From an uncultured archaeon (GTDB taxonomy: Archaea; Asgardarchaeota; Thorarchaeia; Thorarchaeales; Thorarchaeaceae): a stretch of DNA of 64,000 bases. The stretch lies in the NCBI GenBank assembly GCA_964558645.1, contig CAZLEV010000005.1:128001-192000 (forward strand). Reading direction: 5' to 3'. Below the pieces are notes generated by a model. The model made no database searches and had not been told where the DNA came from. It was given only the letters and a program-made list of their open reading frames with translations. Shown here piece by piece: positions 27,958-49,800 of the stretch (position 1 is its first letter; every line of letters begins with the position of its first letter). A program made the translations under genes and the position numbers.

Positions 27958-27986
27958 CTAGCCAGTCAGGCTGCATCCGTGCCTGT
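27958..27986 (-). repeat. Displaced nrdD 3'-end copy 1 (most decayed)
   Basis: ctagccagtcaggctgcatccgtgcctgt vs nrdD ctacccagtcaggctatatctgtgcctgt; reads RHGCSLTG*. Confidence 0.8.
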
Positions 27987-28068
27987 GCAGCAACCTTGAT
28001 TCATATGTCCATTGTATCTCAAAGGCCACTGTCTACTGGTACTTCAGAGACTTGCTCAGTGTCTTGCA

Positions 28069-28983
28069 TCAACGTCTTCCTCTGGCCCAACGGAACACGA
28101 GAGCGATGCAGAGTGCTGCTAAGACTATACCCCCTACAGGAACCAACGGATGGATACTCGCCCCATCAAGAGGCGGTGGCGGGCCTGCCTCGATCTTAAT
28201 GACCTCTCCCTCAGGAGTCACAGAGAAGACTATCTCAGTCTCACTCGTCACAACGTCAAACGGCCCATGAGGAAAGACAGATTGCTGAATATACCTGTAC
28301 GTAGCAATCTCCCAGTGGATCCCGGCCAGTAGCGCGTCCGCGTTGTCATGGCTCCAAATGGTAGTGAAAGCGTCCCAGCACCAAAAGGTGGTCCCGGTGT
28401 AGTTGTATGACCAGAGATATGCGACAAAAGGTGATTCTGTTTCCCAATGTGGCTCTGTCCATGACATCACTCTCAGACCCAAGGTCTGGTTCATTTCCAT
28501 GACAGAACGCAGAGATAATTTCAGGGAATCTATCGGCGCATCCAGACCAATATCAATCACCGAGGTGACTCCAGTCATCTCCGTGCGATTAAACGTACAT
28601 TCAATTATCAAGTTGGAGTAACTGCTCTCGTTGAGTGCAACCAATGATATATGGCGCGTATCGTAGGAGAAGGGGCCCTGAGGGTAGGTTTTTCGCATGA
28701 AAGCAAGACACTCATGATGCTCCTCAATGAAAGCAACGATGTCTGGATTATCGAGGAGAAGAGGGTAGTTCTCTGCAATGCGCTGCTCGACTTGCTGCCT
28801 TATCACAAGTACATCCCGGCCATCCACATCAAGAGTGAGATTTGATGCCTGTGAAGAGCTGCCGATTCGAGGCAGAGAGGGACAGTTGGATTCGGCAGAC
28901 AAATGGCAGCCATAGCTTGAAAATGGCGAACTCATGAGGAGTGCTAGTAGCACGATGCATGATAATGCACTCTTCAATCTCAA
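28069..28983 (-). CDS. Secreted, C-terminally anchored partner protein (paralogue of 36591..37559)
   Basis: Signal peptide, C-terminal TM; shared motifs LWS.NYTG..FW, W.H..AD..LA..HWE, VFSV...G..I. Confidence 0.8.
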   Translation of the reverse strand: MRLKSALSCIVLLALLMSSPFSSYGCHLSAESNCPSLPRIGSSSQASNLTLDVDGRDVLVIRQQVEQRIAENYPLLLDNPDIVAFIEEHHECLAFMRKTYPQGPFSYDTRHISLVALNESSYSNLIIECTFNRTEMTGVTSVIDIGLDAPIDSLKLSLRSVMEMNQTLGLRVMSWTEPHWETESPFVAYLWSYNYTGTTFWCWDAFTTIWSHDNADALLAGIHWEIATYRYIQQSVFPHGPFDVVTSETEIVFSVTPEGEVIKIEAGPPPPLDGASIHPLVPVGGIVLAALCIALVFRWARGRR

Positions 28984-28988
28984 GCACC

Positions 28989-46500: not shown

Positions 46501-46805
46501 GATAAACGAGGAGTTGGAACGGGAGGGTTGCTCTTCCCTCTCGTTTACTCATTTTTGGTGCTTTGTCTCTTAGGGCACCTAGGTCTTTTCGGAGCCTCTC
46601 AGCATCTTCTGGACCTTCTAGCGATATGACTCTGTAGCCCATGCTCTTCAGCCGTTCTCTCCTCCTCATCTGCCTCGACATCGCAAGCCCCACTCCGTTC
46701 GCTCTTAGACGCCTATCGATGGCCGCGGAAAGAGGGCGCGTCTGGAAAGGCTTAACGATGGTCGATATTGGGATGACTCGATAGAAGATACGCTACGAGA
46801 GCAGC

Positions 46806-46852
46806 AAAAAGAGAGGAAGGAGGGTCGTGACAGCGCTGCGGCCGACGACCGA
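46806..46852 (-). terminator. Hairpin + T-tract downstream of nrdD
   Basis: ggtcgt...acgacc inverted repeat followed on the - strand by ctccttcctctcttttt. Confidence 0.6.
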
Positions 46853-46854
46853 CA

Positions 46855-49800
46855 CTACCCAGTCAGGCTATATCTGTGCCTGTCCAAGAACTCTTGGCGC
46901 TTAGATTGATTCCACGTTGAGAGACTCTGGACGTACCCGGTAATTCTCGAGAAAATATCGCACCCAATGTGTCCACAGCGCGGGCAGGGGATGTTTTCCA
47001 GCTCCTCGATTGAACTGAACTTCGTCGAGCGCCAGTCGATACTGCTCTGATAGGCGCATTCCGGGCATAGAATTACATCTTTAGTAAAAGCAAAATATGA
47101 ATTAAGTGTTGTTTCAGCAATCTTCCTCGTCAGCGCCCACAGTGCGTTAGGGTCAGGGTTGGCCTCACCTAGGTACACATGCGTCAACGCGCCACCGTCG
47201 AGGAACGGATGGAACATACCCTCCTTCTTGATTCGCTGGCTCAGCGGCAGGTCGGCTGCCACATCGAGGGTCGTGCTGTTCGTGTAGTAGACATTGGGCG
47301 CATCGCCCTTCAGATACTTGCGGATGCCTGGATATGAGCGATAGTCCTTAGCAGCCAACCGACCGGCAGCGCTCTCTGCGGGAGTACGCGTCACACCAAA
47401 GTGCAGCCCGGTCTCCTCTCGATACTCATCAGCCCGCTTCTTGAGATGCTTGAGCACCTTGATGCCGAAGCGTGTGCCGTCTCGCTCGTGGAGATGCTGA
47501 CCGGTCTGAATCAGAGCCATCTCTTCAAAGCCCACTGTTCCCAGCAGGAATTCTCTGGTGGACATGTTAATCAAGGGGTCACCGTTGGGCTTTGGTTGCG
47601 TGTAGAACGGAACGCTGCCGCTTGCGATGAGCTTGTCCATGAGGCGTTTCTTCTCCAGAATGACCTCCTTTGACAGTTCGAGGTACTCATCGACCTTCTC
47701 AAAGAAGCGGTCCTCGTCGGAGCGACCGATATAGGCGGCCCTCCCGAAGTTGGGAGTGACCATCTGCGAAGCACCGAAGACCATGTTGCCTGAGAGGAAC
47801 TCCTCCATCTCCTCGTCGGTGCTAGCGGTCCAGAGGTGAGAGCAACAGCTGCTGCAGCCTGCCTCTATCTTAGAGCGCCAGTTCAAGTAGTTCTCGAAAT
47901 AGGGACTACCATGAAGCGCCGTGAGCTCGGCGACCTTTCTCCATGACTCGTCATAATCGTTCTTCATGAACTCTTTTCTGAGCACTATGTTGGGCTTCGG
48001 GAAGCTGAAGGCCTTACCCTTATGGTCACCCTTTATCATGACCTCCATGAAGGCATCAAAGAACTGATTGGCCTCGTCCTCGAAATCACCATAGGTGTCA
48101 CGGCCCGTCTTCCCACCTGGAAGCACTGCCTCCACATCTCGCATGATCTTTGGAATACCGGGTGTCAGGTCCACACTTGAGAAAATGACCTGGCCGCCCC
48201 GGGCGACGTATTGCTGCGTGAGTGTGAATATCAGCTGCTGAGCGGCCTGCTTGATCTCCTTGTACGACTTGCCCGCCATGAAGGGCGCGAGGAATGTGTT
48301 GAAGAAGAAATACCCTTGGCCGCCGGAATTGTGCAGAATTATCCCGCCGTGTCCGCCTATGAAGTTCTCATAATCATCAACGGACAAGTCATAGACTTGA
48401 CCCTCGAAGCTCTCTCGTTCGATGACTTCGACTATGTCAAAAGCCACATCCCCACTAGTAAGATGCCGTAACGACTCAATCTCGTCTGAGTAATCAACGG
48501 CAGTGTCTGAGAATTCGATTAACTGGTCAAGGACAGCACCAAAGAGATGAGGGGCCATATGCTGCTTCTGGAATATTGCATTGATTCTTGGTATTTTGCT
48601 ATGTGTATGTGGCACTCCCATCTTGCTGATGAGTTCTCGCACGTTCGTTTTCTCAATTGGAATCGCATCGGGAAGCGAGGTTGTTGTTAGCTTTCGAGTC
48701 TTGTATTCGAAGTCCTCAGTGGTAATATCGGGAATGTGTGCTGCAAACCGTCGTATGTTCTCCCGGCCATAAATAGAAGTGCGATAACCAACACTCTTCC
48801 GTATCGTACGATTACCGATCTTGTGGCTTGATGATCTATGGGTCCTCTGCCTGGCAATGATACCCAGCTGGAGAAGGAGATAGAGCAAATCGGTGCTTAG
48901 CCCTTCTGTAACTGAAGTGAACTCGATGCTTCTTCTGTGTATATGACCATCGCAGAAGTATCCATTCAAGAACTCCCACTTAATCTCGGCAGAACCGGAT
49001 AGCACTACGGGCGGAATCCTCTTGTCTTTAGCATTCCGACCTGTTCTGAGAATCTCTGTCATGATAAGAGCGACTAATTTGTTGCAGATAACAAGCTGAA
49101 TCTCGGTCTCATGGGGGCGTTGTACATTGATATCAGCACCCCATACACATCGGATGCATTTCTTCGCATCTTCAATTCGGTGTTTCTCATGAACGCCAAA
49201 GCTGAGCACTATTGCATTTGGCTCCTTGTGGCGGTCAAGACCGATATTTCCCTCCGCAGCGAAATATCCTAAGAACCGGGACAATTCACGACTAATGTCA
49301 ATCTCGGCAGGCAATTCGTAAGATGATCGTGATAGACTTAACAGAGAACCTGAGAAGTCAATATCGCGATTGTGATCTCGAACCTTCAATAGTGAAACGC
49401 TGTTGCGTCTTCTTTCCCATTCCTCCAGCTCACTCAACTGATCGGCAATACCCTTGACATACACAGAAGAGATCTTGTCTTCGCCAAGCTCAAGAAGGGC
49501 ATGGGCTATATCAAGAGTATTGGGACCATCGCCATTAGGGAGCACACGGGGTACTGCAATCAAGTCGCCTTCCTTCAAGTTGATCACTGCGATGGGTTTG
49601 ACCTTTCCATTCTCAAGCGTGAATAGACTGTGTGAACCTGTACACCGGATTTCGCGTCCAGTACGAGTACGTATTCTGTATACATCGTCTGATATCGGAT
49701 GACGAATGACCCTGTTGATCTCCTTTCGTTCAATTATCATTGTTTCAGGGTTGAAAGCATAAGTATAGAGACCGTCCCCTGTGATATCAGCAACCTCGCC

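Follow-up and report, generated by a model that had tools for sequence, protein, structure and literature searches.

Why does the end of an essential gene recur downstream of the gene itself, between blocks of genes that have nothing to do with it? The question is raised by a stretch of 64,000 nt (hereafter the window; G000:C5:128001-192000) of a metagenome-assembled genome (MAG; 3.63 Mb in 37 contigs) whose lineage in related records is Thorarchaeota (Asgard archaea). In this window the last codons of nrdD, which encodes the class III (anaerobic) ribonucleotide reductase, are found both at the gene and at four further positions, where they separate cassettes of mostly surface protein genes. 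Arrays of this kind are a Thorarchaeota-wide cassette system built on the nrdD tail, in which each cassette is bounded by a tail copy of 37-75 nt, and we found no description of nrdD-tail cassette arrays in the literature.

A repeat search of the window returned a single family of five 37-nt direct copies, all on one strand, which start at 27958, 32174, 36498, 40912 and 46855 and are spaced by 4216, 4324, 4414 and 5943 nt (73-81% identity to the reference copy). The copy at 46855 is the live end of nrdD, which reads EFLDRHRYSLTG followed by a stop in the nrdD frame, and of which 46855-46893 is the portion repeated within this genome; the four displaced copies all fall between long open reading frames (ORFs). 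The anchor gene, its tail copies and the arms that follow two of them are:

46855..50598, minus strand: nrdD, class III ribonucleotide reductase, the anchor gene (Pfam NRDD, E = 2.9e-126; Intein_splicing; LAGLIDADG_3)
~48325-49933, minus strand: LAGLIDADG intein within nrdD, seen as a gap in alignments to the congeners G001 and G002
46855..46935, minus strand: live tail, the final 26 codons and stop, from the Tyr that follows the glycyl-radical Gly (RITG/Y...)
46737..46854, minus strand: armA, the post-stop arm of the live copy, homologous to 36380-36497 and with a copy in G001
40912..40948, minus strand: displaced tail copy 2, reading ..DRHRYRLTG and a stop
36498..36534, minus strand: displaced tail copy 3, coding-competent, reading EFIDRHRYSLTG and a stop
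36380..36497, minus strand: armA', the post-stop arm of copy 3, homologous to armA
32174..32210, minus strand: displaced tail copy 4, reading ..GRHRYRLTG and a stop
27958..27994, minus strand: displaced tail copy 5, the most decayed, reading ..HRHGCSLTG and a stop, adjoining a conserved flank gene (27327-27923)

A fuzzy search of the whole assembly on both strands (up to 7 mismatches in 30 nt) recovered just these five copies, and an nhmmer profile of Thorarchaeota nrdD ends yielded no further credible copy in the genome. The preliminary description of this DNA had reported five same-strand copies of the nrdD 3' end in intergenic gaps; the repeat search and the whole-genome search agree with it, and the motif is confined to the locus rather than scattered through the genome. 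The five-copy pattern is real, specific to the nrdD locus and far beyond chance. Copy 3 differs from the live end by six synonymous changes and one Leu-to-Ile change, in keeping with the earlier proposal that it was once a working gene end, and weaker similarity continues for a few codons upstream of it (nhmmer match 36508-36553); the copy farthest from nrdD is, as had been noticed, the most decayed one. Similarity also extends beyond the stop, with 78% identity between 36380-36536 and 46737-46893 and ~120 nt past the stop shared. armA is pyrimidine/T-rich after a short inverted repeat and contains the single weak terminator-like site found by a terminator scan (46806-46791), features which suggest that it may be a terminator. 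The anchor gene additionally has a weak ATP-cone match (Pfam), and its intein is present in G000 only, both congeners aligning straight over the gap.

The blocks between the copies encode three unrelated gene sets in four cassettes, mostly surface proteins and a transporter. Starting from nrdD, they are:

40949..46854: cassette B1, containing a 1576-aa TSP3-repeat surface protein (41770-46500, plus strand; Pfam TSP3_bac)
41068-41223, minus strand: small Zn-ribbon ORF, in the conserved distal end of B1
36535..40911: cassette T2, three genes (Pfam; orthologous G002 block at 84-88% identity)
36591-37595, minus strand: 334-aa unknown surface protein of T2
37570-38955, minus strand: transglutaminase-like protein of T2
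39226-40854, plus strand: NosD/beta-helix protein of T2
32211..36497: cassette B3, a secreted protein and a three-gene ABC transporter (Pfam)
32330-32545, minus strand: small Zn-ribbon ORF of B3, in the distal end that it has in common with B1
32937-33602: 221-aa secreted protein of B3
33689-34669: ABC ATPase of B3
34653-35549 and 35553-36326: two membrane proteins of B3
27995..32173: cassette T4, a paralogue of T2 with three genes (Pfam; BLASTN against T2)
28069-28983, minus strand: 304-aa unknown protein of T4
28989-30401, minus strand: transglutaminase-like protein of T4
30773-32116, plus strand: NosD/beta-helix protein of T4

These cassettes are related in pairs. A duplicated segment common to T4 and T2 (29556-32426 versus 38140-41164; 86-90% identity by BLASTN) includes the tail copies at 32174 and 40912, and within it a 100% identical tract (31815..32202, equal to 40553-40940) ends inside tail copies 4 and 2 at GG/CAGGCAC, where the slash marks the end of identity; past this point identity drops to ~93% (32211-32426 versus 40949-41164). 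Read from the alignment, the identical tract marks a recombination or conversion boundary. B1 and B3, for their part, are alike at both ends, distally over 40949-41164 and 32211-32426, and proximally over armA (120 nt). This confirms what the preliminary description had suspected, namely that independent events were fewer than the copies. The small Zn-ribbon ORFs of B1 and B3 share a conserved C-terminus (..GVHWYKCTYCQKMIRES.LADETMQN.) ~120 nt before the next tail, and gave no informative Pfam or NCBIfam match. In the two transglutaminase-like genes the DNA for the N-terminal ~280 residues is 90% identical, and the catalytic C-terminal parts and the downstream partner genes are not alignable as DNA.

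Is the content of the array stable among close relatives? In G002, the left flank (82% identity) is followed by a decayed tail that still reads QEFLDRH..SLTG, by one T block (84-88% to T2), by a tail and by the start of B1; B3 and one T block are missing. In G001, B1 (94% identity, on contig C73) leads on to an arm resembling armA and then to a decayed tail; beyond these lie a different block of 2.2 kb encoding membrane proteins and, where the contig ends, an intact tail. The nrdD contig of G001 stops 28 codons short of the nrdD stop, and its assembly has nothing of window 18000-27957. Along nrdD, G000 and G001 are ~92% identical, but over the last ~270 nt the value is only 55-80%. Block content thus differs among close relatives, with breaks at the tails, and the end of nrdD has itself been exchanged. 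The earlier suggestion of a reusable att-like site is in agreement with a motif restricted to this locus and with congeners that have different blocks joined at tail copies, instead of an invariant gene content. The part of the window left of the array (1-27957) is itself patchy or missing in both congeners, where it lies on many short contigs, and flexible content may extend past the part of the locus that is delimited by tails.

Further evidence came from four public sequencing runs, of which X1 is the probable source of the MAG, X2 comes from another study and X3 holds related strains from freshwater sediment. Only assembled contigs were available for X1-X4, and no raw reads, so that circles and true copy number are not visible in them; parts left uncovered in X3 and X4 carry no evidential weight. 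These runs bear on the possibility that the array is an artefact or a purely local event, either a strain-chimera assembly or a tandem segmental duplication that diverged, without any mobility. The paralogy of T2 and T4 and their identical 387-nt tract lend themselves to this explanation. In X1 the tract is a single contig that differs from the window by one base, at 32126, and has a depth of 13.8 compared with 11-13 for its flanks, i.e. not doubled, and the contig graph leaves the order across it ambiguous. However, contigs of X1 span copies 5, 3 and 1, the four blocks are all present at even depth in the independent samples X1 and X2, these blocks hold three unrelated gene sets, and the same design recurs in dozens of independent assemblies (see below). 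We consider a local artefact very improbable; the concern that strain variants had been assembled into one array, which the preliminary description had raised, persists for the order of the blocks around the 387-nt repeat and not for their existence. In X3, contigs placed at 90% likeness join 28475 to 40920, 8 nt inside copy 2, and include 'empty' cassettes of the B1/B3 type, which consist of the conserved distal end fused straight to armA and a tail. Such variants are compatible with cassette turnover, and we use them as supportive evidence only.

How widespread is this architecture? We surveyed 48 Thorarchaeota nrdD loci with flanks of up to 10 kb, using as queries the tail of each locus and a profile of real tails. 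Displaced tails were found in 22 of the 36 informative loci (this window and that of G016 included), with one to four extra tails each, and in every one of the 22 they have the same strand as nrdD and lie downstream of it. Homology to them mostly has its 5' edge at positions 72-78 of the 150-position profile. The repeat unit is the last ~75 nt of nrdD (24 codons and the stop) and begins sharply at the Tyr codon after the glycyl-radical Gly, i.e. after RITG and with YLQSLSSFNPAKKQEFLDRHRYxL and a stop. A search of viral, genome and metagenome collections with the exact pattern of this genome's own core had given no match; relatives use other synonymous codons. A codon-degenerate pattern later succeeded, and retrieved 56 metagenome stretches, 27 of them with 2-10 tails, which within each stretch lie on a single strand and whose 5' edge is mostly at position 76; one metagenome contig carries a live end and at least 10 tails, separated by cassettes of 504-1319 nt. 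No displaced tail was present within 12 kb of nrdD in a control set of 20 Asgard genomes from eight other families and 6 bacterial loci. A single IMG/VR match, considered as a possible attP, was rejected as an unrelated genuine nrdD (29% identity). In a genome of another genus, a longer displaced nrdD fragment of 97 codons (G014:C38:24409-24699; 43% identity, two stops) lies ~850 nt downstream of the live nrdD end, which indicates that not every event was limited to the 75-nt unit.

The cassettes of this wider set are mostly smaller than those of the window. Forty-five cassettes in genome loci range from 528 to 5943 nt with a median of ~970 nt, and mostly contain one gene, in either orientation; most measure 0.5-1.7 kb, and the largest are those described above. 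Their products include a luciferase-like oxidoreductase, a MoxR/VWA pair, an ABC ATPase, an MvaI/BcnI endonuclease, a DNA methylase, a NERD nuclease, NosD-like and Zn-ribbon proteins, and many ORFans; outside this genome the cargo consists of ORFans, restriction-modification genes, nucleases and oxidoreductases. A given cassette family can occupy different places in the array and have other neighbours on either side; for instance, one family of 246-aa proteins occupies the first cassette in locus L080 and the second in loci L071 and L057. For three families the cassette DNA is 82-91% identical, compared with only 77-81% for nrdD when the same genomes are paired, which indicates horizontal exchange. 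With respect to the idea that the newest block is the one next to nrdD, two comparisons support it (G001 with G000, and L071 with L080, where an extra cassette lies between nrdD and a shared one); nonetheless, internal positions also turn over, so the rule has exceptions.

Where in the tail does the exchange occur? Orthologous cassettes that lie in different contexts share the 3' part of the upstream tail along with the post-stop sequence, and the 5' part of the downstream tail, and beyond these limits similarity falls to noise. Since relatedness changes over within the tail, each cassette brings along the 3' portion of the tail upstream of it and the 5' portion of the one downstream. In pooled identity profiles the changeover falls around the codons for FNPAKKQEF, at the conserved tail centre or slightly 5' of it, and in this genus it lies a little more 3', at the DRH codons; as all copies are similar in the tail centre, the crossover is placed to within ~30 nt at best.

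The tails also bear the mark of coding constraint. Over 27 arrays, differences between tails of one array amount to 427, 250 and 930 at codon positions 1, 2 and 3, and 756 codon differences are synonymous versus 341 non-synonymous; of the synonymous ones, 174 need at least two base changes, such as Ser TCG/AGT and likewise switches between Leu codon families. Among 47 full-length displaced tails, 37 have no internal stop and 10 do. This mainly synonymous divergence shows that the tails have been kept able to encode the NrdD C-terminus, and as a sequence pattern it fits tails that repeatedly served as the live gene end. Together with the differences within the window and the diverged nrdD ends of G000 and G001, it bears out the earlier notion that incoming DNA supplies replacement gene ends. 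It also shows that the tails of one array are not descended from a single duplicated target, by which we rejected duplication of the target through a staggered cut.

Several other readings of the repeat were weighed. Single-strand DNA folds of 10 tails gave z-scores from -2.65 to +1.19 and no common structure, and an attC-like hairpin was rejected. A central palindrome (TCCTGC-N6-GCAGGA), a candidate for a selected site, has a mean complementarity of 4.4 of 6 in displaced tails and 3.8 in live ones, but perfect palindromes are not enriched. A diversity-generating retroelement with template and variable repeats was rejected given that array ORFs contain no reverse transcriptase domain and the mismatches, which sit at third codon positions, are of all kinds rather than adenine-specific. 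We likewise rejected displaced tails as translated spare parts for oxygen-cleaved NrdD, in the manner of GrcA/YfiD, because they start after the radical Gly, lack start codons, are unfused to cassette ORFs and have stops in 10 of 47 cases.

A second repeat family exists in the same genome. The trailer of the 16S rRNA gene (C10:126735-126939) has four same-strand copies on contig C28, at 15346, 24586, 26236 and 26728 (73-89% identity), with a conserved core of ~80-110 nt (GGTCGAGCCACCCTATTCTATTGCATA...) that is unrelated to the nrdD tail, and these repeats may represent a second cassette array. A k-mer scan for arrays of at least four copies had returned only the nrdD array and the CRISPR array; it missed the diverged trailer family, which was later found by BLAST. 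The 16S rRNA gene itself, present once (C10:124412-126689), spans 2278 nt compared with the 1478 positions of the model, and so has ~800 nt inserted (an intron or similar).

What enzyme, then, moves the cassettes? Pfam and NCBIfam scans of long ORFs detected no integrase or transposase in the array or in the rest of the window, and neither integrase nor recombinase was detected among 31 representative cassette proteins or the 10 proteins of the metagenome contig with 10 tails. Two flank proteins, checked as hidden recombinases (27327-27923 and 26399-27223), have no informative match in the same databases. The genome encodes one tyrosine recombinase (PF00589; 413 aa, with a C-terminal Zn ribbon), on another contig than the array; fuzzy and profile searches found no tail-like sequence near it. 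In the region around it (C1:468342-471860, L015) it lies beside a primase/NTPase-like ORF, and the region is probably a separate integrated element. rve (PF00665) and TniQ (PF06527) were not found in this genome, serine recombinases are represented by a sub-threshold resolvase fragment only, and the sole Cas1 gene lies beside a CRISPR array (C4:101474-110016; period ~455 nt in the k-mer scan). Across the family, PF00589 is present in 24 of 61 genomes (8 of 23 high-quality ones) and absent from 37, and the SSV-type integrase PF16795 is present in 0 of 61. None of the five genomes with the largest arrays has PF00589, four of these five lack PF00239, and in 20 family genomes that have both an integrase and nrdD no integrase lies on the nrdD contig. 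Another family member has three tyrosine recombinase genes in a row on a small contig (G073:C116:394-2727). The absence of an integrase from the array, stated in the preliminary description, is confirmed, and leaves both alternatives it had offered, an enzyme acting in trans and a process driven by homology.

Targeted transposition, either of Tn7-like elements at an att site in nrdD or through casposase/Cas1-like staggered cuts that duplicate the tail, is to our mind the most improbable of the explanations considered. Tn7 leaves a 5-bp duplication, as opposed to the 37-75 nt seen here. Moreover, tails within an array differ synonymously, with switches between Ser and Leu codon families, and so do not derive from the copying of one target; each half-tail varies along with its cassette; the genome has no rve and no TniQ; and its only Cas1 adjoins the CRISPR array. 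In its favour, growth of the array next to the anchor resembles the leader-proximal growth of a CRISPR array, and Tn7-like elements have been reported next to nrdD in two archaea (2025 preprint, 10.1101/2025.07.27.667033).

The blocks might instead be decayed integrative elements (proviruses, plasmids or tycheposon-like islands) whose own integrase was later lost, which we regard as improbable. Integrative elements classically leave behind a displaced gene end and a synonymous replacement of it, as for phage 21 and e14 at icd and for tRNA islands; the window blocks are large (4.2-5.9 kb), and one integrase-bearing element is present elsewhere in the genome (C1:469842-470360). Yet none of the ~45 genome cassettes, nor those scanned in metagenomes, contains an integrase, and with a median of ~1 kb and one gene they are too small for autonomous elements. 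In addition, no nrdD contig carries an integrase, and the tail motif is found nowhere near the C1 element.

A dedicated site-specific recombinase acting in trans, in an integron-like manner and with the 75-nt tail as its site, is a possibility that we retain tentatively and with some doubt. Such an enzyme could belong to an unrecognised family or be borne transiently by a virus or plasmid, and its crossover would lie in the conserved centre of the tail (TTCAATCCTGCAAAGAAACAGGAGTTC in most genera, ~GACAGGCAC in this genus). Sharp and invariant unit boundaries, a change of relatedness between orthologous cassettes at the conserved centre or slightly 5' of it, the window boundary at GG/CAGGCAC, the restriction of arrays to one lineage, the integron-like size and ORFan-rich content of the cassettes, and imperfect palindromes at both inferred crossover regions all speak for it, as does the poor fit of a 75-nt tract at ~80% identity to homologous recombination. 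Against this, there is no candidate: PF00589 is absent from the five array-richest genomes and from 37/61 family genomes, SSV-type integrases do not occur, a serine recombinase is found in one of the five array-richest genomes, and this genome, without rve and TniQ, has its only Cas1 at the CRISPR array. The free synonymous variation implies that most of the 75 nt is not a conserved protein-binding sequence, the single strands have no consistent fold (z from -2.7 to +1.2), the palindrome is not enriched in displaced tails, and the second, unrelated repeat family of the genome would require a second specificity.

We favour host homologous recombination over an unrecognised site-specific recombinase, and give about an even chance to the reading in which the architecture is a cassette array whose rearrangements are catalysed by host homologous recombination or gene conversion, with the conserved tail as portable homology. 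An incoming cassette, probably a circle with one composite tail, would recombine with the live nrdD tail and donate a synonymous replacement end, pushing the old end downstream; recombination between any two tails could then delete, excise or reshuffle cassettes. Our preference is based on the few recombinase genes, the constraint at the peptide level, exchange tracts longer than the tail (as in armA, in the post-stop arms common to several copies and in the diverged last 270 nt of nrdD) and the second repeat family. In particular, peptide-level selection over all 24 codons fits variable crossover points better than a fixed protein-binding site.

A number of observations weigh against recombination by the host. 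The 5' edge is sharp and identical, at the Tyr codon, in ~100 displaced tails from many lineages, and homologous recombination alone gives no reason for homology to end there. In most studied systems ~75 nt at ~80% identity is a poor substrate for homologous recombination. Arrays occur in one family although other Asgard tails are similarly conserved, which may point to some factor peculiar to the lineage; host recombination does not account for where new cassettes come from; and, as MAGs are incomplete, a recombinase may have been missed or may be novel. In the window itself, the depth of the 387-nt repeat is not double that of its flanks, as two copies would give, and since copies 4 and 2 lie inside this one contig the order T4-B3/T2-B1 is not uniquely supported. 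An alternative order would be flank-T4-B1-nrdD plus a separate or circular B3-T2 unit. Finally, no circular intermediate was seen in the assembled contigs of the runs.

If the system is real, the arrays represent a new, integron-like archaeal way to capture and exchange genes, where recombination takes place at a functional copy of the tail of an essential gene and does not require an integrase in cis. Part of the flexible genome of Thorarchaeota, most of which have no recognisable site-specific recombinase, would be explained in this way. Asgard archaea are the closest prokaryotic relatives of eukaryotes. The arrays may be reservoirs of defence and surface-variation genes, as their cassettes include restriction-modification genes, nucleases and many ORFans. 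The system is testable, having a defined 75-nt site, a predictable circular junction and natural variants in public sediment metagenomes, and could yield either a new recombinase family or evidence that homologous recombination with short anchors can run a cassette economy. In a broader formulation, which could equally well prove right or wrong, Thorarchaeota would have a general, integrase-independent means of gene capture that uses conserved 3' ends of housekeeping genes, here nrdD, as portable sites for a shared pool of single-gene cassettes, through host recombination or an undescribed recombinase, as an integron analogue of independent Asgard origin.

How does this design compare with known systems? 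In Escherichia coli, phage 21 and e14 replace the 3' end of icd by a mostly synonymous copy and leave the old end downstream. The nrdD arrays resemble them in the synonymous replacement of a protein-coding gene end and in the pseudo-end left downstream, but the icd prophages are single, bring their own integrase, and form neither multi-cassette arrays nor a family-wide pool. Integrative mobile elements exploiting Xer (IMEX: CTXphi, TLC, the gonococcal island) use host XerCD at dif and accumulate in tandem without an integrase. They offer a parallel for integrase-free elements piled up at one site by host machinery; the nrdD target, however, lies inside a coding sequence and is probably not dif, and in most of these genomes no Xer-type recombinase was detected. 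The Tn7-like elements found beside nrdD in two archaea, one of them an Asgard, and described without tail repeats (10.1101/2025.07.27.667033), have in common with the arrays the 3' side of nrdD as a landing site, and are set apart by the absence here of TnsB/TniQ and by the 37-75 nt of gene end duplicated per insertion. Casposon or CRISPR integration differs in that Cas1 is not at the array and the tails are not copies of one target.

Closer parallels are provided by tandem islands at tRNA or tmRNA 3' ends, such as the tycheposon-built islands of Prochlorococcus (10.1101/2020.12.28.424599). There, too, displaced target 3' ends are co-oriented, cargo is stacked serially, some members have no integrase, and the gene is completed by an end that the incoming DNA supplies, comparable to the synonymous divergence of tails. 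Unlike in those islands, whose autonomous members carry integrases, none was found here, the target is protein-coding, and the modules mostly hold single genes. Integrons (IntI, attI and attC arrays) have been reported in Archaea too (10.1101/2022.02.06.479319), and share with the nrdD arrays cassettes (0.5-1.5 kb) that mostly contain one gene, often an ORFan, and have a single repeat (~60-140 nt) as their boundary, the presence of the same cassettes in different orders across genomes and, in some comparisons, insertion adjacent to the anchor. In contrast to integrons, no IntI-type gene lies next to the nrdD array and none is found in most genomes, the repeat is the coding-competent last 24 codons of a housekeeping gene instead of an attC hairpin, genes lie in either orientation, and the anchor is a gene end that is rewritten at each insertion. 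In function the arrays are like an integron or an island of the tycheposon type, but they lack the defining features of these (IntI, an attC fold, integrase-bearing members). The design belongs to a known kind, that of cassette arrays or accreted islands at gene ends; what sets it apart is the coding-competent tail of a protein gene as the site, together with single-gene cassettes, family-wide spread and the absence of any linked recombinase.

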